Positions 1-45,237 of a stretch of DNA of 64,000 nucleotides are shown in pieces. Position 1 is the stretch's first letter. Each line of letters starts with the position of its first letter. Source of the DNA: Patescibacteria group bacterium (GTDB lineage: Bacteria > Patescibacteriota > Patescibacteriia > Patescibacteriales > UBA12465); contig JAVEZP010000001.1 in the NCBI GenBank assembly GCA_034002925.1, positions 711 through 64,710 on the forward strand. The letters run 5' to 3'. The translations under genes were made by a program, and so were the position numbers. The notes under the pieces were generated by a model. It saw only the letters and a list, made by a program, of their open reading frames with translations, was not told where the DNA came from and did no database searches.

Positions 1-384
1 AAATCTGGATTGATCAAAATTTCCAGAGTAAATAAAACCGCCTTCTACTTTTTTTATCTTAATTTCTCCTTTGCCCTTGGTGTTGTATTTTGAATTGTCC
101 CAATCGTATTTATAAGAGCTAAAATATTCCATTTCCCAACCCCCGACTATATTTGGATATTCTTGGAAACCAATTAAGATAAATAATTTTTTTATTATCC
201 AATGTTTGTTCCAAAAAAATTTTTCATATAAAAAATTTAAAAGATAAAGAATTAAAAAGATAATTGCGGAAACAATACTGTATTTCCAAAAGTTTAATTC
301 AGGAAATTTGTTGCTTACCGCATAAAACGCAAAAGTCAGTAAAACCGATATCGAAACTATTTTTTTGAGATTTAATTTAGTCAT
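1..384 (-). CDS. Partial 2-TM membrane protein (C-terminus off window); candidate CBASS effector (Cap15 / S-2TM-beta-like)
   Basis: Not in the ORF track. Reverse-strand translation from ATG 384-382 stays open to position 1: MTKLNLKKIVSISVLLTFAFYAVSNKFPELNFWKYSIVSAIIFLILYLLNFLYEKFFWNKHW...PNIVGGWEMEYFSSYKYDWDNSKYNTKGKGEIKIKKVEGGFIYSGNFDQSRF. Two N-terminal hydrophobic helices are followed by a beta-strand-rich segment. ATGA start/stop overlap with the nucleotidyltransferase gene. Confidence 0.5.
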   Translation of the reverse strand, partial: MTKLNLKKIVSISVLLTFAFYAVSNKFPELNFWKYSIVSAIIFLILYLLNFLYEKFFWNKHWIIKKLFILIGFQEYPNIVGGWEMEYFSSYKYDWDNSKYNTKGKGEIKIKKVEGGFIYSGNFDQSRF

Positions 385-1313
385 ATTTTTTCTAAAACAA
401 GATTTGCGCATTTTGCTATAAATAACTGAGCGTCTGCTAAATTCCAACAATTTTTAGACAAAAATAAAAGGTCTTGACCGTTGGCACATTTATAATATTC
501 AAGTGATTTGTTTTCGGAATCATTGAGAACATTTTGCAATATATTTATAACAATACTCTGGTAACTTCCGTTAAAAGTTGGTGCCGGGCAGTTGTATATT
601 AGGTTTTCTATAAAATATGATGGTGCGATTTTTTCGTCTATTTCTCCTTTTTCTTTTAATTTTTTTCTAATATTTTTAAAAATTCTGATAGAGTCTTTGA
701 ATTTCCCTTCCGTGTCATGATTAAGGGCTTCACAATTTTTCTTGTGTTCTTTCGGGTAGTTAATTATTAGATCATTTGTTTCGGTATTAAAAAATTTTAT
801 TCCAGAAACATATTGATCTGTAGTGTAAAAAGTAAAGCGACCATATTTTCTGTGATGAAAGGATGGAACAACATCTGCGTTTACTCGTAAGGTATTTTTT
901 GGAATTTTCAAACTCTTTTTGCCATATTCAACAGTTACTCCCGAAAAATATTTTTTTAATGATTCATGGACATCTTTCTTAAATTGAACAAATTTATATG
1001 TGCTTGAATTTGGAAAATAAGAATGAAAATCTTTCTTTTCATCTTCCGTTAATTGATCTATGTCATAAGAAAAGATTGATTTTAGTTCAATCACAACATC
1101 TACATCACTATCGTCAGTGATGTTTGTGCTATTGGCGTATGAACCCTGCAAGTAAACCTCATAATTTTCTGCTTTAATCTCATAATCATGATTATTTTTA
1201 GCAAACTCCGATAAGTAAGCTGATAATGCTTTTCTTATCTCTTCATGGGTGTGTTTGTATTTTGTCGCCGCTGGAGCAGAAGCCCATTGTTGTAACTGTT
1301 GTTCAGAAATCAT
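381..1313 (-). CDS. CD-NTase / SMODS-type nucleotidyltransferase (CdnE-like cyclic oligonucleotide synthase)
   Basis: Pol-beta NTase catalytic pattern: QGSYANSTNI...DSDVDVVIEL (GS...DxD) plus a downstream third Asp in NADVVPSF. N-terminus LQQWASAPAATKYKHTHEEIRKAL resembles CdnE-type leaders. Size is 310 aa. A 2-TM gene follows with a 4-nt overlap. Confidence 0.7.
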   Translation of the reverse strand: MISEQQLQQWASAPAATKYKHTHEEIRKALSAYLSEFAKNNHDYEIKAENYEVYLQGSYANSTNITDDSDVDVVIELKSIFSYDIDQLTEDEKKDFHSYFPNSSTYKFVQFKKDVHESLKKYFSGVTVEYGKKSLKIPKNTLRVNADVVPSFHHRKYGRFTFYTTDQYVSGIKFFNTETNDLIINYPKEHKKNCEALNHDTEGKFKDSIRIFKNIRKKLKEKGEIDEKIAPSYFIENLIYNCPAPTFNGSYQSIVINILQNVLNDSENKSLEYYKCANGQDLLFLSKNCWNLADAQLFIAKCANLVLEKI

Positions 1314-1314
1314 A

Positions 1315-2406
1315 TTATTTTTTTACAATAAATAACGCATCTGAAACAGATGTGTATTTTTCGTCTTTCCAGTTAAAATTAATTTTTAGATTATTATCGG
1401 CTTTAAATTTATCAAGATATGACCCGACACTTTCTCTTAAAAAATCAATATTTCGTTTGAGCTTCCAACTATCTTCAAGGTTATCTTTTTCTATTAACAC
1501 TAAAAATAAACGATTAGCAGAATCAAAACGTCTTTCGCCTTGTTCTTCATAAAGCCATTTAATGAGTTCTTTTTTGTTTTTCATAGCTTCTTCAACTATT
1601 TTCCACCTTGTTTTATGAAAATTGGTTATAGCTTTTTTTACTGGCTCAAGGTGGCTCTCTGATAATCTGGTAAGTAACTCGGATAGTAAAAATTTATTTT
1701 TTTGTGTTGAGTCAAATTTAATTTTGTTTGTCTTGGCAATTTGCTTGAGTTCAGTAAGTTCTGGCTTTAACCCTTTTTCTTTACGCTTCAAAGCCATGAA
1801 ACCGTCAGGAAAATAAGTCACTTTTAAGTCAAAAGGAATTTGGTCAACAAAAAAATCAACCTTTTTAATCAAACCGATCGTGGGTAACACTCTTTTGTGC
1901 TCTTTAAAAATGTCTTCAATCAAAATTGATGTCCAGTGATTAAACCAAGAACACAAAACATATCCTTTCAGACTTTCATGTATATCGTTGTCAATTTTAT
2001 CCATTAAGACATCAAAATTTTTGATTTTTTTGATGTAATTATCGACAATTGTTCTCTCAAGGTTGTTTTGATAGAGTCCGCCCCAGTCAAAAATTTTCAA
2101 TTTATATAATTCTGAAATGAGTTTATCTTCATAACCCTTTCTTTCCTTCCTTTCATTTTGAAATTTGTCATTGATAAATTTATCAATAACTTTTTCTGTT
2201 TTAGGACTATTAACGATTTGTTCGATTAAATCATTGGTTTTTTGATTGGGGTCGATATCAATTTTTTCCGCAAATTCAACAAGCAAAGCCTTTCGTGTGA
2301 TTGAACGAATTTTTAAAAATAGCAAACTATTTTGGTCTTTGAGCAATGTTTCAAAATCGTTTACATCATAAAGTTTTTTGAGCTGTTGATAAATTTTATA
2401 ATTCAT
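1315..2406 (-). CDS. Putative type II restriction endonuclease (partner of the adjacent methyltransferase)
   Basis: Starts 6 nt downstream of the DPPY methyltransferase stop. Possible PD-(D/E)xK-like motif in VDFFVDQIPFDLKVTY. I recognise no other family. Confidence 0.4.
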   Translation of the reverse strand: MNYKIYQQLKKLYDVNDFETLLKDQNSLLFLKIRSITRKALLVEFAEKIDIDPNQKTNDLIEQIVNSPKTEKVIDKFINDKFQNERKERKGYEDKLISELYKLKIFDWGGLYQNNLERTIVDNYIKKIKNFDVLMDKIDNDIHESLKGYVLCSWFNHWTSILIEDIFKEHKRVLPTIGLIKKVDFFVDQIPFDLKVTYFPDGFMALKRKEKGLKPELTELKQIAKTNKIKFDSTQKNKFLLSELLTRLSESHLEPVKKAITNFHKTRWKIVEEAMKNKKELIKWLYEEQGERRFDSANRLFLVLIEKDNLEDSWKLKRNIDFLRESVGSYLDKFKADNNLKINFNWKDEKYTSVSDALFIVKK

Positions 2407-2412
2407 AGTGTT

Positions 2413-3471
2413 TTAGTTATAACAATAAAATAAATATTCGATAGTTCCTTTGCGACTTCCTTTTCCGCCATAATGATTTGAGTATTCATTCTCATACACT
2501 TTTACTTTTTTGTGCTTTTTAATGAGTTCAACCATTTTTTCTTTTTCTGGATAACTCTTGCTGTTATAAGAAATTAACCAATAAGGAATGTGTTTACTAT
2601 TTTCAAAAAGTTTTTCAAAAGATTTCTCAATTTCAGTTTTTTGAACAAAGCCACTCTCTTTTTTTGGAAAATACGACTTTGTGCCATTTACAAATTCTTT
2701 GTCTTTCCAGTACTGAACGAATGTTTCTAAGAAATGATAAAAGGCTTGATAGTCTGGGTGGCAACCAACATAAGGTGGATCAAAATAAACTAAATCAACA
2801 TCTTTGAGTTTTGGAAGCAAAGAAATTGTGTTTTCGCAAAATACCTTATTCTTTTTTTTGTTATCAAAAATTGCATGATTATATGAATGTACAAGGCTTT
2901 GGAATATATCTTTCAGGTGTTTTGCTAGGCTTGCATTTCTTTTAATTCTATCTGGATTTTTGCTATATTCAATTGCTTTGAGATGTGCAAAATGCCCTAA
3001 TGTAATTTTTCTTGTTAGAGATCGGTTCATTAAAGTCAAAGCTAATGCTTTTTTGTATTCATTGTCTAATTTCTCAACATTTGCTCGGAATTTATCTAAA
3101 AATTGAGCTTGGTCTTTTTCAAAAAAAACTCCAGTAAAAATCCTTTCGATTAGATTATCAGCTTTTGTAGTTTCATCTAACAAAATATCTATATCATTTT
3201 TATCAAGAATGATATTTTGATTTTCAATTAAAGCTTTAGAAATTAGAGAATTACACTTTAAAAAGTCGTTACTATAAACCTTATAGCCTCTGTCTTTAAA
3301 ATAATATCCAACAACGGATGTCCCGCTAAAAGCGTCAAAAACAGTTTCAATATCTTTTGGTGCAATTTCAAGAATCCACTTAATAAGTTTCTCTTTGCTT
3401 CCCAAATATTGGGTTCTTGGAAATTGGTGTATTTTATATTTTTCGCCGAATAGCGTAGTTTGTGACATCAT
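2413..3471 (-). CDS. N6-adenine DNA methyltransferase (D12/Dam-like, DPPY motif)
   Basis: SAM-binding motif DAFSGTSVVGYYF and catalytic motif LVYFDPPYVG. Confidence 0.8.
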   Translation of the reverse strand: MMSQTTLFGEKYKIHQFPRTQYLGSKEKLIKWILEIAPKDIETVFDAFSGTSVVGYYFKDRGYKVYSNDFLKCNSLISKALIENQNIILDKNDIDILLDETTKADNLIERIFTGVFFEKDQAQFLDKFRANVEKLDNEYKKALALTLMNRSLTRKITLGHFAHLKAIEYSKNPDRIKRNASLAKHLKDIFQSLVHSYNHAIFDNKKKNKVFCENTISLLPKLKDVDLVYFDPPYVGCHPDYQAFYHFLETFVQYWKDKEFVNGTKSYFPKKESGFVQKTEIEKSFEKLFENSKHIPYWLISYNSKSYPEKEKMVELIKKHKKVKVYENEYSNHYGGKGSRKGTIEYLFYCYN

Positions 3472-3497
3472 AATTTATATTCTGGTATAGTAGTTGT

Positions 3498-3503
3498 ATT
3501 ATA
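3498..3503 (-). promoter_or_regulatory. Candidate -10 box (TATAAT) for the MTase-REase-NTase-2TM operon
   Basis: Plus-strand attata is TATAAT on the minus strand, 27 nt upstream of ATG 3471. Confidence 0.3.
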
Positions 3504-3640
3504 TTTTTTCCCCTTATAAATAAATCGTTTTCGGAGCGATAGCGGAGAAAACACCTTATTCCCCTCTATAATTAAAGAAAAAGAAATTTGAAAATTTTTT
3601 AAAACAGTTGGGCGTTAACCCAGAAAAGAAAAGGAATATT

Positions 3641-3775
3641 TCAGCTAACGTTTCGGCATATACGATGTTGCGAGCGAGCGTGGCGGTATAATTTTCTTAC
3701 CGCCTAAGCGAGCGAAGCAATATGGGCGGAACGACGAGGCACGAGGAGTGTAACCGTATATGCCGTGTTAGCTGA
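3641..3775. repeat. E1: GC-rich imperfect-palindrome element (attC-like / structured-RNA-like)
   Basis: Outer stem TCAGCTAAC (3641-3649) / GTTAGCTGA (3767-3775). Inner stem CGGCATATACG (3654-3664) / CGTATATGCCG (3755-3765). Internal hairpin GGCGGTA (3682-3688) / TACCGCC (3698-3704), flanked by GAGCGAGCG and AGCGAGCGA. Homologous to E2. Confidence 0.75.
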
Positions 3776-3784
3776 TGTAATTTT

Positions 3785-4534
3785 TTATTTTTCTTCCTCT
3801 TTTTTCTTCGACCTTGAAAATAATCCAAAAATCAAAGCAATAAGTCCTCCTGTAATAGCTCCAATTATACCTTTTTCTGCAACGCCTTCAAAAATACTTG
3901 GAGAGTCATTCTTTTTTGCTTCTTCTTCGTTATATTCATATCCTTGTTCATAACTAAAAGAATCAATGATTTGATTGAAAGTTGATAAATTTTCTGAATA
4001 TTCAGATTTAACGGAATAAAAATTGAGTTGAGTTATTCCACTTTTGCCTAAAAACATAGCTAATAGACCCTTTACTTTTCCGACATTGGCAACATCCATT
4101 TCTAGGTTCATAAAAATAATATTTCTTTCTTTATCTACGAATGGGTCTTGAAGACTTGCATTAGTCATTAGTTCTGAATATTCATCAATTTTTTTGTTTA
4201 CGCTTTCAGAAAATTTATCACTTTCAAATGTCTGGGTAATTTGACTATATGAAGGAGTATTTACTTTATGTTGTTGAACAAGGATATATGGATATTGAAA
4301 AGCTTCGGTGTTCTCAAGCTGAAAGCCTGCCGCATAATCAATAAATTGTCCGCCAGTCATATCTGCTGCTTGTTGCATTACTTCGTCGATTGTAGATTTT
4401 GGAATTTCAACCCACCCGCTTGGAATTGTGAATGAGTAGTGATATTGCTGGCTTACGTAATCAAGGCTTTCAGCGTTTGCCATTGTCGGTAGCAGAAAGA
4501 AGCAAAAAAGAATGACGGTTAAGATTTTTTTCAT
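3785..4534 (-). CDS. Exported protein of unknown function with a C-terminal TM anchor
   Basis: Signal peptide MKKILTVILFCFFLLPTMANA. C-terminal helix GIIGAITGGLIALIFGLF followed by the charged tail SRSKKKEEEK. Confidence 0.6.
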   Translation of the reverse strand: MKKILTVILFCFFLLPTMANAESLDYVSQQYHYSFTIPSGWVEIPKSTIDEVMQQAADMTGGQFIDYAAGFQLENTEAFQYPYILVQQHKVNTPSYSQITQTFESDKFSESVNKKIDEYSELMTNASLQDPFVDKERNIIFMNLEMDVANVGKVKGLLAMFLGKSGITQLNFYSVKSEYSENLSTFNQIIDSFSYEQGYEYNEEEAKKNDSPSIFEGVAEKGIIGAITGGLIALIFGLFSRSKKKEEEK

Positions 4535-4564
4535 AGTATTTATGGTTAAAAATAAAAAATTATT

Positions 4565-4665
4565 TCGGCTAACATTTCAGTATATCTGATGTTTGCCGTA
4601 GCGGAGCGGAGGCAAATATAGGTCGAGCGAGGGCACGAGCGAGCCAGATATACTGTGTTGTGCGA
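4565..4665. repeat. E2: second copy of the GC-rich imperfect-palindrome element
   Basis: TCGGCTAAC (4565-4573), CAGTATATCTG (4578-4588) / CAGATATACTG (4645-4655), GTTGTGCGA (4657-4665). Hairpin TTTGCC (4592-4597) / GGCAAA (4611-4616). GAGCGA-gggcac-GAGCGA at 4625-4642. Same architecture as E1 with compensatory stem changes. Confidence 0.75.
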
Positions 4666-4707
4666 GGGTGAGCGACGTTAGGAGCGAAAGTGCAACGCCC
4701 CCTTGAG

Positions 4708-4752
4708 TTCTCTTTTGTGAAAAAAAATCCAATTCAATTTTGGCACTTTTTA
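4708..4752. repeat. Left arm of the inverted repeat bracketing the Ltp-like gene
   Basis: TTCTCTTTTGTGAAAAAA-(10 nt)-AATTTTGGCACTTTTTA. Matches the reverse complement of 5550-5597. Confidence 0.7.
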
Positions 4753-4767
4753 TCCTTATTTATGCAC

Positions 4768-5529
4768 TTAATCATTAAGGTGTTGAATGGCATAATCCGC
4801 TTCAGATTTCGTAAATTTTTCGCCATATGCCGAAGTCAGTTGGTCGTGAATAGCTGATGGAGACATATTCATAGTATCTTGATAAGTTTTTGCTTTAACT
4901 AAAGCATTCGCATTCCAATCAGCTGTCATATTATCTATTGCATATTGTGCGGCATCAGCTGAAAACTTTTCGCCATATTCTGAAACAAGCTGATCATAAA
5001 CGCCTTGCTTCGACATGTGCATTGTTTTTGCATACATTGTTGCTTTGTTAAGAGCAGATTTATATTCAGCCGGAACAGACGCTTCCTTGGTAGGTTCAGG
5101 TTTTTCCTGGGGAGTAGGAATTATTTCTGTTTTTTCCGTTTCAACTGGTTTTTCGTTGTTAGTGGTTTTAGGCTGTTCTTCTGTTGGTTTTATTTCATCC
5201 TTCTTTTGTTCAATGTTTGATACAGATTGTTCTTGCTGAACTGGTGGCTGATTATTTTGTTGTTTTGAAGTATCAATAGTCGAGCCAAAAATTATAAAAC
5301 CAATAATTATAACAACCGCTTTCATTCCTCCAGAAAGATGAAATTTCCATTTTTCATCAACCAATTTATTAACAGGAGGAAGAAGAACAGCGGCCATTAT
5401 TAACATTACGATTCCTGGAACTGGCTCAGAAAAAACAGATATAATTCCAGTTAAAGCAAAAAGAATGCCAAAAATCCAGCTCAAGATTAGACCAACTGTG
5501 ATTTTTTTACTTGTTGTTTGTTCTGTCAT
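4768..5529 (-). CDS. Membrane-anchored protein with two Ltp-type repeats (superinfection-exclusion-like surface protein)
   Basis: N-terminal TM helices and a Pro/Glu/Lys/Thr-rich linker. Two repeats follow: YKSALNKATMYAKTMHMSKQGVYDQLVSEYGEKFSADAAQYAIDNM and ALVKAKTYQDTMNMSPSAIHDQLTSAYGEKFTKSEADYAIQHL. Both match the Ltp (host cell surface-exposed lipoprotein) repeat pattern. Confidence 0.7.
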   Translation of the reverse strand: MTEQTTSKKITVGLILSWIFGILFALTGIISVFSEPVPGIVMLIMAAVLLPPVNKLVDEKWKFHLSGGMKAVVIIIGFIIFGSTIDTSKQQNNQPPVQQEQSVSNIEQKKDEIKPTEEQPKTTNNEKPVETEKTEIIPTPQEKPEPTKEASVPAEYKSALNKATMYAKTMHMSKQGVYDQLVSEYGEKFSADAAQYAIDNMTADWNANALVKAKTYQDTMNMSPSAIHDQLTSAYGEKFTKSEADYAIQHLND

Positions 5530-5549
5530 AGTTTTTTAAATTAAAGAAT

Positions 5550-5597
5550 TAAAAAGTGCTAAAATTTTCCTTGTTTTTATTTTTTCACAAAAGAGAA
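5550..5597. repeat. Right arm of the inverted repeat bracketing the Ltp-like gene (its native 5' leader)
   Basis: The reverse complement reads TTCTCTTTTGTGAAAAAA-(13 nt)-AATTTTAGCACTTTTTA. Confidence 0.7.
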
Positions 5598-5699
5598 TTT
5601 CGTACAACTCTTTATTATACAATCAAAGCATCTTATAACTACCATTATTTGTATGTTATACAAATATATGCTAATATATTAATCCACTTATTTACTTTA

Positions 5700-5728
5700 A
5701 TTATAACACTAGGATTAAGGGTATGCAA
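5700..5728 (-). promoter_or_regulatory. Outward sigma70-type promoter pointing into the cassette array; its -35 overlaps the recombinase start codon
   Basis: Minus strand reads TTGCAT (rc of 5723-5728, i.e. ATGCAA of the recombinase), a 17-nt spacer ending in TGT, then TATAAT (rc of 5700-5705). This is an extended -10, TGTTATAAT. Confidence 0.5.
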
Positions 5729-6535
5729 TCAATTTTAGATAACACTAAAAACACATTAAAATTAAAAAACTATAGCTCAAGAACTATCAAGTCCTATTTG
5801 TTTTACATCAAAGAATATCTAGTTTTTGCCCAAAAAAATGCTTTACATGATAAAAATATTGCAGTAGAAAAATATCTTTTACAGAAACAATCTAAAAATA
5901 ATTCCTCACAAACAATTAATTTAGCCTTAAATGCTATTAAATTTCTATACAGAGATGTTCTTAGAGTTAAAGATAACATTAGTTTTAAATGCGCCAAAAG
6001 AAGCAATAAAATCCCAATTGTTCTCTCTAGGTTAGAAATTGAGGAAATTATCTCTGTTATTAGCAACACAAAACACAAGCTAGCTATCACTTTAAGCTAT
6101 GCTGCTGGCCTACGAGTAAGCGAAACAGTGAGCTTGAAGGTAAAAGATCTGGATTTAGATAGTTTAACTATCCATCTAAAAGAAGCTAAGGGAAGAAAAG
6201 ATAGAATCACCATATTTCCAGATAAACTTAAATCGAGCATAAAAAATTTAATAGCCGGAAAAACTAGTAATGATTTAGTCTTTGAAAACAATAGAGGCGC
6301 TAAACTAAGCACTACTTCCCTACAAAAAGTGTTTCGTTCTGCTCTAAAGAAAACAAATATAAAAAAAGAAGCTACTTTCCATTCACTTAGGCATAGCTTC
6401 GCTACTCATTTGCTTGAAAATGGAGTTGACGTGAGATATATTCAAGAATTATTAGGACATGCTAACATACGTACCACACAAATATACACTAAAGTTACCA
6501 ATCCGCAACTAAAAAATATCAAAAGTCCATTATAA
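5723..6535 (+). CDS. Tyrosine site-specific recombinase (Xer/integrase family, short form)
   Basis: N-terminal SAM-like domain (YSSRTIKSYLFYIKEYLVF, LNAIKFLYRDVL). Catalytic region AAGLRVSETVSLKVKDLDL, KGRKDRITIFP, HSLRHSFATHLLENGVDVRYIQELLGHANIRTTQIYTKV (R..HxxR..Y). Confidence 0.85.
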   Translation: MQSILDNTKNTLKLKNYSSRTIKSYLFYIKEYLVFAQKNALHDKNIAVEKYLLQKQSKNNSSQTINLALNAIKFLYRDVLRVKDNISFKCAKRSNKIPIVLSRLEIEEIISVISNTKHKLAITLSYAAGLRVSETVSLKVKDLDLDSLTIHLKEAKGRKDRITIFPDKLKSSIKNLIAGKTSNDLVFENNRGAKLSTTSLQKVFRSALKKTNIKKEATFHSLRHSFATHLLENGVDVRYIQELLGHANIRTTQIYTKVTNPQLKNIKSPL

Positions 6536-6538
6536 AAT

Positions 6539-7474
6539 CTAATTTTTACCCAAAAACTCATCTATTTCTTTTTCTGCTTCATGAATATTGTCAATCCAAA
6601 CTATCTCTCTGCCTTGTTTTTGCCAACGCTTAAACCAAGTTTTTTGACGCTTGGCGAAACGATAGGAAGCGGTATTAAGTTGCGTTAGCATTTCCTCATA
6701 ACTAATTTTTTTGGTCAAGAAATAAGCAATAAAGCGATATTCTAAACCAAAAGAAATAAGACGCTTCCAAGACACTCCTTGCTGATGTAGATGTTCTACT
6801 TCAGCTATCATATTTTCATTTTGCAATCTATCATGCACACGCTTAGCGATTCTCTCTCGTAACTCCTCATCAGACCTCTCTAAACCGAGCACTAAAAAAT
6901 CATAGGGGCTGTCTTTTTTTTGATTAAGAAGCTCAGGATTGTCTAAAATTTCTAAATAACGCGCTAAACGTCTTGGGTTATTTCTTTCACTATTATTTAA
7001 TCTTAAAGCAAAATCTTCATTAATATTCTTTATTTTTTGCCATAAAACTTCTGTTCCTAGGGCCTCCCAGGCCTCTCTTTGTTTTAAATTACCTTTAACA
7101 CTACTTAAATGATAATTATCTACCACTGCCTGTAGATACAGACCGGTGCCACCCACAATAATAGGCAACTTGCCCCTGGAGAGCACATCTTCAATAGCTT
7201 TAAAAGCTAATTTTTGATATTTAGCGAGATTAAAATTAGTTTTTGGCGAAACTACATCAATCAGATGATAGGGAATATTTTGACCTTCAAAATTATACTC
7301 TTTTAAATCTTTAGCCGTGCCAATATCCATGCCTTTATAGACTTGACGACTATCAGCCGAAATAATCTCACCCTGATAACGAGCTGCTAAACGCACCCCT
7401 AAAGCTGTTTTACCAGAAGCGGTAGATCCTAATAACACAACTATTTTTGCTTTTGTAATCTGTTTTTTTATCAT
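6539..7474 (-). CDS. miaA: tRNA dimethylallyltransferase
   Basis: P-loop GSTASGKT; IISADSRQVYKGMDIGTAK; full-length family pattern. Confidence 0.9.
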   Translation of the reverse strand: MIKKQITKAKIVVLLGSTASGKTALGVRLAARYQGEIISADSRQVYKGMDIGTAKDLKEYNFEGQNIPYHLIDVVSPKTNFNLAKYQKLAFKAIEDVLSRGKLPIIVGGTGLYLQAVVDNYHLSSVKGNLKQREAWEALGTEVLWQKIKNINEDFALRLNNSERNNPRRLARYLEILDNPELLNQKKDSPYDFLVLGLERSDEELRERIAKRVHDRLQNENMIAEVEHLHQQGVSWKRLISFGLEYRFIAYFLTKKISYEEMLTQLNTASYRFAKRQKTWFKRWQKQGREIVWIDNIHEAEKEIDEFLGKN

Positions 7475-8778
7475 AAATTATCATCCAATACTTCTACTAA
7501 GTCAGCACTTAGACCAAAGCTTTTAACCGCTTTAACACGCAATAAAACAAAACGACCAATTAAATCTTGAGAACTAGAAAATTGCACACTTTTAAAACTA
7601 GAGGTTTTGCCTTGATAGACTCCTTTTTTAGTTTTACGATCAACTAAAACTTTTACTACTCTATCAACATAATCTTGATTAATTTTGAGACTAGTTTGTC
7701 TTAAAATATTTTCTAAAGTTAATTCTCTCTCTTTTTTCTCCAGTTCGCTAACATTGTCTTTCATCTTCCAAGCAACAGTTCCGGGGCGCGGGCTATATTG
7801 AGAAATATAAGCCATATCAAATTTTAATTTTTTAAATAATTTAGCCGTATTTTGAAATTGTTTTTTTGTTTCTCCAGGAAAACCAACAATCACGTCAGTG
7901 CTAATCGCAATGCCAGGCTTAGCTTGTCTAATTTTTTCAATTAAACTAATAAAATGCTCAGCTGTATAACGACGATTCATAGCTTGTAAAATATCATCAT
8001 CACCTGACTGAACGGCTAAATGGAGATGGTGACAGATTTTATCAGAAGCAGACATGACTCTAATTAATTCATCAGATAAATCTTTAGGATGGCTAGAAAA
8101 AAAACGCAACCAAAAATTTCCTGGCAAAGAGGCAATTTTTTTTAATAATAAAGGAAAATCAATGCGTCCACTACGATAACTATTAACATTTTGAGCAATT
8201 AAAACAATTTCTTTATAGCCTTTAGCTAACAAGTTCTCAACTTCTTTGATAATATCAGAAGAAGCGCGATATACTTCTCGGCCACGAGCATAGGGTACCA
8301 CACAATATGAACAGAAATTATTACAGCCATTACCAATAGGCACATAGGCGGTAAAAGAGCTGTAGTATTTAGGTGTAATGCCTAAATATTTTTCACCACT
8401 TAAACGTCTTAATTCTGTTTGACTGCTTGATGACTGATGATTGGCATTATGCAATAAAGCTAATAAATTAGGCAACTCATTAATGGGCATAAATAAATCT
8501 ACTTTGCCTTTTAATCTTTTCTGCACATCTTCCCTGTTGGCCAAACAACCAGTAATAACAATTTTAACCCTTGGATTAGTTTTGCGAATTTGATTCACTA
8601 AACCATAAACACGATCTTCCGCCGCCTGACGAATACCACAAGTAGTAAGAATTACTAAATCAGCCTTAATATAATTATCAAGTGCTTGATATTTATTTTC
8701 ACTTAAAAAGGCCTCTATTCTTTCACTGTCAGCTTGATTCATATGACAGCCAATTGTAATAATATAATAACTTTTCAT
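7471..8778 (-). CDS. miaB: tRNA methylthiotransferase (MiaB-like radical SAM)
   Basis: UPF0004 N-domain YYIITIGCHMNQADSE, radical-SAM motif GCNNFCSYCVVPYARG, C-terminal TRAM-like region. Start moved to the internal MKSYY (8778), which avoids overlap with the upstream gene. Confidence 0.85.
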   Translation of the reverse strand: MKSYYIITIGCHMNQADSERIEAFLSENKYQALDNYIKADLVILTTCGIRQAAEDRVYGLVNQIRKTNPRVKIVITGCLANREDVQKRLKGKVDLFMPINELPNLLALLHNANHQSSSSQTELRRLSGEKYLGITPKYYSSFTAYVPIGNGCNNFCSYCVVPYARGREVYRASSDIIKEVENLLAKGYKEIVLIAQNVNSYRSGRIDFPLLLKKIASLPGNFWLRFFSSHPKDLSDELIRVMSASDKICHHLHLAVQSGDDDILQAMNRRYTAEHFISLIEKIRQAKPGIAISTDVIVGFPGETKKQFQNTAKLFKKLKFDMAYISQYSPRPGTVAWKMKDNVSELEKKERELTLENILRQTSLKINQDYVDRVVKVLVDRKTKKGVYQGKTSSFKSVQFSSSQDLIGRFVLLRVKAVKSFGLSADLVEVLDDNL

Positions 8779-8782
8779 AGAA

Positions 8783-10579
8783 TTATTGAGCGAGTAATGT
8801 CTCATCATTTACAATCATTGGTTTAACAAGATATAAAGCAAAGGGGCCACGTCTTTTAATAGGCTCTATCTGTAAATTAAAATTTGGCAATTTTCTCTCA
8901 TTGAGATAAAGGAGATCTTTTTCCGGAAAAGCAAAATTATAATAATAAACCGGATAATATTTAACCAATTGAGAGATTACTTCATTAACATCATTATTAG
9001 TTAATAAGGCGCTAACAATCTTTCTTTCTGGAAACAATTGCTTATCATGATACTGAGTGATAATAATAGCCTCTTCTTCTGTGCTTTCTAAAATAGCAGC
9101 TGCATCTTGACGATCGCGAAAATGATTATAATATAGCGTCATTAAACCCTCCTCAGAACCGAAAAAAACAAAACTTAGAGAAATAAAAATATAAAAACCT
9201 GTTAATAATGACGCCATGAGTAGATAAAGATAATTTTGCCCTCGCAAACGCCAAGCTTCTAATTTAATAAAACGAGACAAAGAAGCAAATAACTTGGAAA
9301 AACGAACAATAAAAAAAGCAGCAAAAGGCATGGCCATAATATAAATTGGCAGCCAATAACGAGTATAAGAATTACCAATAGTAAAGCGGCTAGGATCAGG
9401 ATTATCATTAAATTGCCAACTACCATAATACAAAACTAAAATAACAGACAATAAAAACCAAGATAACAAATAAAGCACTGCTCCTTTTTTTGGTCTTTTA
9501 AGCCATTTAAAAGCAAAGATTATAAAACCAAAGGCAGTAAATAGACATAAGAGTGGAAACATTTTAATCACATAGTAATAAAACATCTCTAAAGATTGGC
9601 GTGGATGATAACCAAAATAAAAAATATTATCTTTCAACACTCGCCAAACATTTTCTAACCTAGAAATACTATTTTGCAAATTAATATGTAAAATTTCTCC
9701 ACTAGCTTGAGATATTTGTTGCAAAGAAGCATTCATCTCGCTATAACCACCGTAAAAAGGAGAAGAATAAAGTATTTGATTCCAGTAAAAAACTGGCAAT
9801 AAAGATAATAGCAAAGCAAAGATACCAGTAACAATCGTTAGCAAACTTAAACGCCGAGCATAAAATAGCCAAATCAATAAAAATAATGGCCCTAACCAAA
9901 TCAATTCTGAACTCCTACTAGCAATAGCGCCCCCTAAAAACAAACCAGACAAAAAAGCGGAGCCATTTGCAATCAGTGTTTGGCGATCAAAAGACCAGGC
10001 TAAAAAAGCTCTTTTTTTAATAATAGAATGCTTAATGGTTAATAATAAGAAATAAGCCGAGCCTAACAAAAAGACAACAAACAAGACGTTATGAAAAAGA
10101 CTGCGCACCGTGTAAAAAATATAAACCGGAAAGGAAGCTAATAAAATAGCGGCAATTAAAGCTGTTTTTTTACCCCAAAGCTGACGGACAAAGGCATAAA
10201 AGAAAATAATACCTAAAGTCGCAAAAAAGGGCGTAAAATAAGGAATAAGCTGAGGGCCAACTAACATCGCTAAATGAGCATAGAGCAAAATAATACCCAA
10301 AAAACTCACTGGCTTTAACCAAGCATGATCACTACGGATGCTACGAGGATGAACAATTTCTTCACCAAATAAATTTGCTTCTTCAAACACAGCAATATTA
10401 CCCTCACTAGCATAGTTGTTAATAAAAAAATAATTCGCTGTTTCGTCAGGTGATAAAAATTTAGTATAAGCAGAATCTTGCACGCTACTCACCAAAAAAG
10501 CAGTGCCCGCTAAAAATAATAGCGCTGTCAAAGCGACTAAGATATTTTCTAAATTTTTCCGCCACCAGACTGAATTCAT
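8783..10579 (-). CDS. Polytopic membrane protein, probable GT-C glycosyltransferase (ArnT/PMT-like)
   Basis: More than 10 predicted TM helices. First-loop acidic motif LSPDETANYFF, as in GT39/GT83 enzymes. Large C-terminal soluble domain. Confidence 0.45.
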   Translation of the reverse strand: MNSVWWRKNLENILVALTALLFLAGTAFLVSSVQDSAYTKFLSPDETANYFFINNYASEGNIAVFEEANLFGEEIVHPRSIRSDHAWLKPVSFLGIILLYAHLAMLVGPQLIPYFTPFFATLGIIFFYAFVRQLWGKKTALIAAILLASFPVYIFYTVRSLFHNVLFVVFLLGSAYFLLLTIKHSIIKKRAFLAWSFDRQTLIANGSAFLSGLFLGGAIASRSSELIWLGPLFLLIWLFYARRLSLLTIVTGIFALLLSLLPVFYWNQILYSSPFYGGYSEMNASLQQISQASGEILHINLQNSISRLENVWRVLKDNIFYFGYHPRQSLEMFYYYVIKMFPLLCLFTAFGFIIFAFKWLKRPKKGAVLYLLSWFLLSVILVLYYGSWQFNDNPDPSRFTIGNSYTRYWLPIYIMAMPFAAFFIVRFSKLFASLSRFIKLEAWRLRGQNYLYLLMASLLTGFYIFISLSFVFFGSEEGLMTLYYNHFRDRQDAAAILESTEEEAIIITQYHDKQLFPERKIVSALLTNNDVNEVISQLVKYYPVYYYNFAFPEKDLLYLNERKLPNFNLQIEPIKRRGPFALYLVKPMIVNDETLLAQ

Positions 10580-41705: not shown

Positions 41706-41776
41706 CTCGGGGACATGGATTCGAACCATGATTGATGGCTCCAAAGGCCACTGTCCTACCATTAGACGATCCCCGA
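41706..41776 (-). tRNA. tRNA-Gln (anticodon UUG)
   Basis: Hand-folded cloverleaf. Acceptor TCGGGGA/TCCCCGA (U1-A72). D arm GTCT/GGAC. Anticodon arm GTGGC-CTTTGGA-GCCAT. T arm CATGG-TTCGAAT-CCATG. No encoded CCA. Confidence 0.88.
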
Positions 41777-45084: not shown

Positions 45085-45156
45085 GCGGGTGTCGTATAAT
45101 GGTTATTATGTCAGCTTCCCAAGCTGAAGACGGCGGTTCGATTCCGCTCACCCGCT
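45085..45156 (+). tRNA. tRNA-Gly (anticodon CCC)
   Basis: Acceptor GCGGGTG/CACCCGC. Anticodon arm TCAGC-TTCCCAA-GCTGA. T arm GGCGG-TTCGATT-CCGCT. Confidence 0.88.
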
Positions 45157-45164
45157 CTAATTAG

Positions 45165-45237
45165 GCCGAGATAGCTCAACTGGTAGAGCAACGGTATCGT
45201 AAACCGTAGGTTGTGGGTTCAAGTCCCATTCTCGGCT
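45165..45237 (+). tRNA. tRNA-Thr (anticodon CGU)
   Basis: Acceptor GCCGAGA/TCTCGGC. D arm GCTC/GAGC. Anticodon arm ACGGT-ATCGTAA-ACCGT. T arm GTGGG-TTCAAGT-CCCAT. Confidence 0.88.

Follow-up and report, generated by a model that had tools for sequence, protein, structure and literature searches.

The attC sites of integrons have RYYYAAC/GTTRRRY ends and a length of ~57-141 bp, show a structure that is more conserved than their sequence, and are recombined as folded single strands. Among Xer systems, the single-recombinase system XerS has its site, difSL, located next to the xerS gene. In Ghaly et al. 2022 (PMC9668308), 539 attCs and six IntIs are reported from uncultivated archaeal lineages, including DPANN, via metagenome-assembled genomes (MAGs), while PMC8138268 assigns the Xer-like recombinases from Candidate Phyla Radiation (CPR) bacteria to a so-called ‘Cand’ subgroup, presumed to be an Xer replacement. 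Here, we describe a locus within a 64,000-nucleotide stretch (the window) of contig JAVEZP010000001.1 from a Patescibacteria group bacterium, in which a tyrosine recombinase gene (5723-6535, +) lies beside an array of oppositely oriented genes that are separated by two attC-like folded sites, designated E2 (4563-4668, +, i.e., the complement of the cassette coding strand) and E1 (3639-3778, +). This locus is probably a chromosomal integron-type gene-capture platform, whose putative integrase is a short Xer/XerA-like enzyme without the IntI-specific insertion. The original prediction, made from the sequence of the window, had proposed a distinct cassette system driven by an Xer-like recombinase, working like an integron and carrying defence genes, and this proposal is supported by cassette variation, half-site matching, the absence of the IntI insertion and GC skew. 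In the literature searched, no report of integrons or attC sites in Patescibacteria/CPR and no description of this Xer-like-integrase cassette system was found.

All genes to the left of the recombinase are located on the minus strand and the recombinase itself on the plus strand, in an AT-rich region with a background of ~30% GC. E1 and E2 constitute GC islands (54-60% GC) directly after the stop codons of the first two array genes. On the plus strand, the half-sites of E1 are CAGCTAAC (3642-3649) and GTTAGCTG (3767-3774), and those of E2 are CGGCTAAC (4566-4573) and GTTGTGCG (4657-4664). All strings and coordinates quoted in the original prediction proved correct on re-reading, as did the imperfect palindromes; the element lengths, given there as 101 and 135 nt, become 99 nt (E2) and 133 nt (E1) when measured from core to core. 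As DNA, E1 folds with -31.9 kcal/mol on the plus strand versus -24.5 on the minus strand, and E2 with -20.6 versus -15.6 kcal/mol, corresponding on the plus strand to z scores against shuffled sequences of -4.7 and -3.8, respectively. A 26-nt 5' motif, GCTAACrTTTCrGyATATnnGATGTT, is common to both and occurs twice in the 64 kb (0.00 expected). Rfam searches at gathering and permissive thresholds assigned no family to E1 or E2 and returned, besides tRNAs elsewhere, chance-level miRNA and snoRNA matches. Of note, the interior of E1 (e.g., 3664-3740) consists of GAWGTT, a hairpin A, an AAWTTGGGTGA-like motif, a hairpin B and (K)AACC, forming a forked three-way tip; this architecture is common to many of the elements described below, GAWGTT being present in 137 and the loose central motif in 95 of 150.

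Loci fetched via homologues of the recombinase (518 kb, oriented on the recombinase gene) were used together with the window to pick 25 elements with a strict hairpin scan, and a covariance model, R1, was built from their MAFFT seed alignment. Within the window R1 matches E1 (75.3 bits, 4.4e-14) and E2 (72.8 bits, 1.7e-13) only, in line with the two complete sites noted originally. In the recombinase-anchored loci it returns 37 matches, 33 of which are on the plus strand upstream of the recombinase. A second set was obtained from metagenome contigs scanned by the element motif alone, with no recombinase criterion, at least 120 stretches being matched; the figures for this set refer, here and below, to the matches listed. 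It contains 171 R1 matches in 80 loci; all elements lie on a single strand in each of the 42 multi-element loci, and in the seven loci with a recombinase homologue that gene invariably follows the elements on their 3' side and shares their strand, which is also the layout of the window.

The elements share a covarying stem structure. In the 25 seed elements the 11-bp L stem is 96.0% paired, with compensatory changes at 10 of its 11 pairs (slid controls 27-44%), and among 146 distinct sequences from the matches listed it is 97.3% paired, with 9/11 pairs compensatory; slid controls over both alignments reach 13-58%. The R stem is invariant at AAC/GTT (24/24 and 25/25), and its variable positions are mispaired, within the array, in 7-15 of the 25 elements and in 49-71 of ~143 in the larger set. 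Between R and L, one side has a 3-nt bulge and the opposite side a single nucleotide, which bears out the originally noted departure from attC spacing. The median element length is 122 nt (range 64-210), and the arrays have a median spacing of 804 nt with cassettes that are mostly single open reading frames (ORFs). Some cores fit RYYYAAC (GCCTAAC) and others do not (AGCTAAC, GTACAAC). For 32 of 34 elements the bottom (plus) strand is the better-folding one, the mean advantage being 3.0 kcal/mol (Wilcoxon p = 2e-6), a bias that would fit a single-stranded DNA substrate and would argue against a role in mRNA.

The platform is widespread in Patescibacteria, with the same arrangement recurring across the group. 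For example, locus L024 from Ca. Uhrbacteria, whose recombinase is 55% identical to that of the window, carries eleven elements with GCCTAAC...GTTAGGC ends; L012 (recombinase 89% identical) carries at least six R1 elements, L031 (Falkowbacteria) five, and L028 (Gracilibacteria) and L014 two each. In L024, four pairs of elements (2158-2484, 6430-6779, 7909-8196 and 9238-9527) are separated by just 60-125 nt in which there is no ORF, each consisting of a short GC-rich type followed by a long type, and two of the short ones have AAG instead of AAC; such a pair may represent either mini-cassettes devoid of an ORF or one composite double site. At two loci labelled Firmicutes UBA2203 and Bacteroidales, i.e., L038 (12380-13537, -) and L032 (13439-13577, -), the elements lie downstream of the matched recombinase (41-42% identical) and on the opposite strand, which may reflect a second recombinase past the contig end or a different layout.

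If recombination takes place within AAC/GTT, each cassette should start with a half-site of its own hairpin, and a hairpin within an array should be a hybrid. The window had suggested as much. Cassette 1 (4573-5607, -) starts, in array direction, with GTTGTACGAAAT and ends with E2; cassette 2 (3649-4572, -) starts with GTTAGCCGAAAT and ends with E1. The two ends of E2 pair poorly with each other, forming five Watson-Crick pairs and one wobble out of eight. The start of cassette 1, GTTGTACG, by comparison, matches the far E2 end (CGCACAAC on the minus strand) at 7/8 positions with a wobble on the plus strand, its plus-strand form CGTACAAC being located at 5601-5608, and CGGCTAAC of E2 matches GTTAGCTG of E1 at 7/8 plus a G-T wobble on the plus strand. 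These values agree with those of the original prediction, both for the poor pairing within E2 and for the 7/8 matches of its AAC end to the 5601-5608 site and of its GTT end to the AAC end of E1.

Further elements obey the same rule. When junctions were scored over the five variable half-site positions, counting Watson-Crick and G-T pairs, own-cassette partners in the recombinase-anchored set reached 4.53/5 (21/30 perfect) versus 3.31/5 (4/29 perfect) for the two ends of the same element, and the observed total of 136 compares with 103.6 +/- 3.9 under permutation, no permutation in 20000 attaining it. In the independent metagenome set the corresponding values, among the matches listed, are 4.54/5 (45/63 perfect) and 3.57/5 (12/60 perfect), with an observed total of 286 versus 215 +/- 6.1 and again 0/20000. 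Half-site matching thus holds in 30 and 63 further junctions, as the original prediction had anticipated for additional elements, and the three 7/8 matches of the window are cases of a general rule. Several own-cassette R pairs in the window, L012 and L014 are G-T wobbles on the plus strand, e.g., CGTACAAC with GTTGTGCG. Together with strain breakpoints at AAC (see below), the two pairing sets display the exchange of R' by crossover at G|TT that characterizes integrons.

Variation in cassette content between otherwise identical sites, which the original prediction had called for in related genomes, was indeed observed. The identical recombinase protein is present on contigs from other samples, one of which, L001, is 100% identical to window positions 5606-6907 (1,302 nt, comprising the attI region described below, the recombinase gene and the beginning of miaA). 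Leftward of 5606 the two are unrelated, and the switch coincides with the AAC at 5606-5608. L001/L002 and the window possess the same recombinase and insertion site with a different first gene, a Peptidase_S51 gene replacing the Ltp gene in L001. Read in array direction, the L001 unit opens with GTTATCTG and closes with a partial element, and CAGATAAC and GTTATCTG, the ends of the unit, are perfectly complementary. The L012 array, which shares the miaA-miaB neighbourhood of the window, consists of eight single-gene units, all on the minus strand and none as in the window; at least seven are followed by an element, the cargo includes aminoglycoside phosphotransferase (APH)-like and methyltransferase genes, and the array ends at core genes. 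Furthermore, two cassettes of the metagenome set (L114_c0 and L124_c1) are ~88% identical across the whole cassette and have different neighbours on both sides, the homology fading at or shortly past the AAC junctions (on the right side ~70 nt into the next, related element). A blastp search for cassettes in common among the first 13 arrays found none, and exact look-ups of the window cassette proteins returned unitigs of the same arrangement from one sample only, with no alternative junction.

Assembly behaviour bears on the same point. In 9 of 17 genome loci (at least 47% identity, near full-length match) the contig breaks 70-400 nt upstream of the recombinase, as it does in Logan contigs, and several contigs start at or a few bases from the attI-like junction; such breaks are to be expected where strain-variable arrays disrupt assembly. 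Within sample SRR25572339, Logan unitigs (the ends of L047, L048 and L003) overlap by exactly 30 nt and break at 3701-3730, 4668-4697 and 5625-5654, indicating that the assembly graph branches at these points. The 5625 break coincides with the end of a 4-nt difference in L002 (ACGAGT versus ACAATC), a hint that variants co-exist within this sample. A second variable spot lies beyond the recombinase, where L012 (10817-12610) has three additional minus-strand genes in the interval from the recombinase to miaA, one for a His_Phos_1 phosphatase and two others, which are absent from the window and from L004.

Of 19 related loci, 16 display a conserved junction, TTTCnnnnAAC|TnnTTnTTATrCGAA, at a distance of ~60-130 nt upstream of the recombinase start. 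Within a lineage the sequence following the bar does not change, and the nnnn on the left varies with the first cassette. In the window this attI-like insertion site, TTTCGTACAAC|TCTTTATTATACAATC (5598-5624, +), which is marked by both the strain breakpoint and the conserved junction, has a left arm belonging to cassette 1, a crossover in AAC at 5606-5608 and a right arm, TTATACAA, that is the lineage version of the conserved half-site TTATGCGAA. An insertion site adjoining the integrase gene, at which the first cassette differs, is what an integron possesses, and the site appears to be the preferred insertion point. Its arms are inverted copies of one half-site (~TTATGCGAwG), and the elements contain this half-site as well, in their R' ends (GTTATGCGATG) and in their L boxes. 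The site has a dif-like form, with inverted half-sites TTCGCATAA and TTATGCGAA around a 6-7-nt centre; the window version, TTTCGTACAAC-TCTTTA-TTATACAATC, displays the two ~11-bp inverted arms around a 6-8-bp centre of a dif core site, and that of L031, ACGCATAAC-TCGTTT-TTATGCGAAC, is a nearly perfect palindrome. It also resembles the dif site of E. coli, GGTGCGCATAA-TGTATA-TTATGTTAAAT, including the ...CATAA at the crossover side. A second attI-like site was sought in the window, yielding chance-level matches with three mismatches only.

Converging gene orientation at L012 had raised the possibility that this site is the dif of the replication terminus, an assignment that was dropped upon examination of GC skew at two loci where skew is strong. 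At L014 the skew keeps its sign, with +0.31 on the left side of the array and +0.26 to +0.29 on the right side of the recombinase, and at L016 it is negative on both sides of the locus, such that the recombinase-adjacent site is not at a skew switch, where a dif would be expected. The neighbourhood also varies by lineage, being miaA-miaB in the window, L004 and L012 and consisting of other genes in L014 and L024. The lack of a skew switch and these differing neighbourhoods argue for the site being an attI analogue rather than a terminus dif.

The original prediction had also reported a near-consensus outward promoter on the minus strand, analogous to the Pc of integrons. Its motif, spacing and position are as described (5700-5728, -), i.e., TTGCAT (5728-5723), a 17-nt spacer ending in TGT and TATAAT (5705-5700), or TTGCAT-17-TGTTATAAT, with the -35 being the reverse complement of the recombinase start, ATGCAA. 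Its near-consensus status did not stand: the -35 matches TTGACA at three of six positions, the promoter is absent from the list of a consensus scan, and that scan found ten promoter-like sites in this AT-rich stretch, where 9.0 are expected. As regards the Pc-like role, the evidence lies in positional conservation and not in consensus strength. A -10 (at least 5/6) is found at a spacer of 16-17 from TTGCAT in 9 of 19 related loci, seven of them with the TG extension, and other -10 offsets occur in at most one locus each, except for three at spacer 27; around this conserved -10 position the intergenic sequences of the 19 loci are otherwise diverged. It is therefore plausible, judging from sequence, that the outward promoter is a candidate Pc analogue.

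The 270-residue recombinase comprises an N-terminal SAM-like core-binding domain (PF13495, 5.5e-14) and a catalytic domain (PF00589, 2.1e-43). Its top NCBIfam match is the integron integrase family TIGR02249, in two stretches and with 217.6 bits below the cut-off of 265, followed by XerA_Arch as a near miss (212.3 bits, cut-off 220); XerD (169, cut-off 329.6), XerC (164, cut-off 335) and XerS (64.8, cut-off 267) also remain below their cut-offs, so that no Xer equivalog cut-off (XerC, XerD, XerS or XerA) is reached. The closest PDB structure is VchIntIA (2a3v, 1.7e-43), aligned in two pieces that skip chain residues ~209-241, and XerA structures (5hxy, 4a8e) come next. Since these residues are the IntI-specific insertion, the split TIGR02249 match and the gap against 2a3v mean that the additional domain near patch III is missing, as had been predicted along with the length of 270 aa, which compares with ~320-337 aa in IntI. 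From its sequence, the protein is thus classified as IntI/XerA-like and Xer-sized, without the domain that defines IntI. It has more than 6,800 homologues at E <= 1e-20, the best 120 of which are 259-309 aa long and 62-99% identical; homologues with a source name are from Patescibacteria, the closest being labelled Patescibacteria, Wolfebacteria or Moraniibacteria. The recombinase adjacent to the arrays never carries the IntI additional domain, family members measuring ~260-310 aa. Five MAGs (L013, L014, L022, L027 and L029; third-party annotation assemblies) that possess a Patescibacteria-type recombinase and the junction are titled Gammaproteobacteria, Bdellovibrionales or Pseudomonadales, which is probably due to mis-binning or mislabelling.

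Taken as a gene-capture platform, the locus would operate as follows. A cassette would consist of one minus-strand gene and an imperfect palindrome of 64-205 nt, whose plus (bottom) strand is proposed to fold such that an outer R stem (nnnnAAC/GTTnnnn) is followed by a 3-nt bulge, then by an L stem of 11 bp with a conserved G..TAT..GA core, and finally by a forked tip. The recombinase, in all likelihood the short enzyme encoded here, would recognise the folded and presumably single-stranded palindrome and cut within the bottom-strand AAC, probably as AA|C. The cut strand would then be exchanged with the double-stranded dif-like attI (TTTCnnnnAAC|TCTTTATTATACAA, crossover at 5606-5608) beside the recombinase gene, and the product would presumably be resolved by replication. 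New cassettes would thereby enter next to the outward promoter overlapping the recombinase start codon, provided that this candidate promoter is active, as we presume. Such a crossover splits the R stem, so that the half-site at the start of each cassette in the array is the pairing partner of the distal end of that cassette's hairpin.

Several points weigh against this interpretation. Just two complete sites lie inside the window, and the third unit of the array comprises at least four genes with no distal site visible there. Support for mobility amounts to one shared-cassette pair and one replacement; it is comparative throughout, and excision, circles and insertion are processes that we infer from it. 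The geometry differs from that of canonical attC sites, in which a roughly symmetric unpaired spacer takes the place of the 3-nt versus 1-nt bulge, and the AAWTTGGGTGA-like central motif conserved in 95/150 elements is likewise foreign to them. The IntI additional domain has been reported as necessary for integron integrase activity (Messier and Roy 2001, as cited in PMC9668308; see also PMC8138268). It is possible that the array is served by another recombinase in trans, despite the absence of a second tyrosine recombinase from the 64-kb window. Finally, the recombinase family is huge and retains 60-70% identity across classes, as a housekeeping protein would, and may mainly resolve chromosome dimers.

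The last point leads to an alternative that we regard as unlikely, in which the recombinase is a housekeeping Xer acting as dimer resolvase, the adjacent site is its dif, and the units resemble integrative mobile elements exploiting Xer (IMEX) that have piled up at dif. The two inverted half-sites of the dif-like site, with the near palindrome of L031, are in keeping with it, as is the lack of a second tyrosine recombinase in the window, and the CTX phage provides a precedent for Xer integrating a folded single strand at dif. The size and conservation of the family point in the same direction, as does the ‘Cand’ subgroup being presumed an Xer replacement (PMC8138268). However, the locus is away from the skew switch in L014 and L016, where a dif would be expected, its genomic neighbourhood differs between lineages, and its left arm varies among strains with an identical recombinase, which a dimer-resolution site would hardly tolerate; uniform orientation, single-ORF units and a positionally conserved outward promoter are, moreover, features of a platform and not of IMEX. 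A housekeeping role is in any case compatible with a platform, in that one enzyme could perform both jobs with a separate dif elsewhere.

It is considerably less probable still that the array is a decayed canonical integron, i.e., a cluster of attC sites without an integron integrase (CALIN), whose ordinary attCs belonged to a true IntI, lost or located elsewhere, beside a coincidental short Xer. Admittedly, the GCCTAAC...GTTAGGC ends of L024 match classical RYYYAAC/GTTRRRY cores, and arrays without a detectable IntI are common, the archaeal ratio of 539 attCs to six IntIs (PMC9668308) being a case in point. Coincidence is untenable, however, given that the geometry recurs with recombinases of 51-100% identity and in 7/7 element-only contigs among the matches listed, and cassette replacement exactly at the junction of a 100% identical backbone argues for recent activity there. 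That the hairpins are structural or regulatory only, i.e., terminators, REP (repetitive extragenic palindromic)-like repeats or an RNA motif with no part in recombination, is the least credible explanation and a highly improbable one. Their GC-rich sequence and position directly after stop codons would suit it, and a terminator-like hairpin does lie nearby (3609-3622, -), yet no T-run follows the element hairpins, no Rfam family matches them at either threshold, the better-folding strand is antisense to mRNA in 32/34 cases, and the half-site rule, the AAC breakpoints between strains and the fixed linkage to the recombinase would all be left unexplained.

As regards gene content, cassette 1 codes for a membrane protein (ORF at 4768-5529, -) that contains two Ltp repeats of the superinfection-exclusion type (PF07553 Lipoprotein_Ltp, 1.8e-47, two stretches). 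The product of the cassette 2 ORF (3785-4534, -) is an exported, weakly DUF2167-like protein that has a signal peptide and, at its C-terminus, a transmembrane (TM) segment; its Pfam match to PF09935 (1.7e-05) is below the cut-off. In the interval from E2 to the Ltp stop codon lies a motif, GCGACGTTAGGAGC (4668-4697), that also occurs at L013 (~2200-2240) beside the attI-like junction and could be a remnant of another element type.

The third unit (1-3648, -) has a cassette-like start, GTTAGCTGAAAT, and its far end lies beyond the window. It harbours restriction-modification (RM) and cyclic-oligonucleotide-based antiphage signalling system (CBASS) genes, namely those for a type II DNA methyltransferase (2413-3471, -; PADLOC MTase_II, 198 bits), an ORF that may encode a restriction enzyme (1315-2406, -), a CBASS oligonucleotide cyclase (381-1313, -; PADLOC Cyclase, 304.6 bits) and, at the left edge, a 2TM/Cap15-type effector (-), of which the beginning alone lies inside the window. 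On contig L046 the effector follows the cyclase and is scored by PADLOC as a 2TM effector (71.2 bits), with Pfam domains CD_NTase_C and Cap15_CD_rec; PADLOC and Pfam thus agree on a CD-NTase cyclase with an adjoining effector, the composition of a CBASS, with the effector scored on L046. This sole contig extending the block ends 50 nt past the effector, and R1 finds no match to the left of E1 within the window; the RM-CBASS block may be one large cassette, or it may already be flanking DNA past the final site. The terminator-like hairpin with a T-run at 3609-3622 (-) lies directly past E1 in array direction and before this block, which may accordingly be insulated from read-through and have its own promoter. 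Upstream of the methyltransferase gene a conserved leader hairpin, CGTTTTC...GAAAAC (3526-3552, -), is present with conserved flanks and is followed by AAAACACCtTaTtCCCCTCTaTAA; hairpin and flanks (window ~3500-3600) recur before unrelated cassette genes in L012 (5695-5721) and L024 (5756-5788), and may act as a promoter or leader that travels with the cassette, or as a regulatory RNA. The sole Rfam matches at gathering threshold in the window are three tRNA genes (41706-41776, -; 45085-45156, +; 45165-45237, +), which are unrelated to the array.

In practice, a locus counts as an integron when its integrase has the extra domain, and tools reject whatever lacks it; the present platform is recurrent and apparently active without this domain. 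Surveys would score such loci at best as orphan attC clusters and overlook the recombinase. For CPR bacteria, with their tiny genomes and few known mobile elements, the platform provides a mechanism for swapping accessory genes, here those for superinfection exclusion, restriction-modification and CBASS and, in relatives, aminoglycoside-phosphotransferase-like and methyltransferase genes; it may also explain the frequent assembly breaks just upstream of the recombinase gene. On balance, we lean towards the broader proposition that, in Patescibacteria, the conserved Xer-like recombinases of the ‘Cand’ type function as integron integrases and would capture folded single-stranded cassettes without the IntI domain, perhaps serving as dimer resolvases as well, and that they represent a widespread form of capture that is independent of, or older than, the IntI insertion. 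If so, integron-style capture would be widespread in a group that accounts for a large share of bacterial diversity, and the same might explain IntI-less archaeal attC arrays, the 539 attCs versus six IntIs of Archaea (PMC9668308) leaving room for a similar platform.

Compared with sedentary chromosomal integrons such as the Vibrio cholerae superintegron, the locus shares a divergent recombinase gene with the insertion site between gene and array, an outward promoter (here a candidate) overlapping the integrase start, and co-oriented, mostly single-ORF cassettes, with ORF-less mini-cassettes (L024) and defence cargo. Also shared are AAC...GTT imperfect palindromes with stem covariation, little sequence conservation and a bottom-strand fold bias, as well as a crossover that splits the R box such that half-sites match across cassette boundaries. 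It differs in its 270-aa integrase without the IntI-specific insertion around patch III, in the conserved outer TTTC/GAAAT of its elements and in an attI that is a recognisable dif-like inverted repeat. The archaeal integrons likewise come from uncultivated lineages, small-celled DPANN among them, and the recombinase described here scores nearly equally to archaeal XerA and to IntI; the reported archaeal integrases, however, carry the IntI additional domain (PMC9668308), and the present one does not.

With Xer/dif systems the locus has in common a short two-domain enzyme, ~11-bp inverted arms around a 6-7-nt centre, a site adjoining the recombinase gene as in XerS/difSL, and ...CATAA|C at the crossover, as on the XerC side of dif. 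The proposed folded single-strand donor and dif-like target also recall CTX phage, whose folded single-stranded attP is recombined by XerC at dif1. Unlike Xer/dif, the locus is away from the GC-skew switch (L014, L016), and unlike Xer/IMEX it holds many small, promoterless-looking cassettes in one orientation, with variable R positions that are proposed to be recognised by structure and not by sequence. The pdif modules of Acinetobacter plasmids are similar in that they, too, are small gene modules with Xer-type sites at their ends, which are shuffled among replicons, whereas pdif sites are plain 28-bp double-stranded sites of alternating orientation with no hairpin, and lack an adjacent dedicated recombinase gene, a promoter-proximal insertion point and a half-site exchange rule. 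Combining a dif-like attI, an Xer-sized enzyme and attC-like folded donors, the locus thus resembles a natural intermediate between Xer/dif and IntI/attC, which makes the origin of integrons testable.

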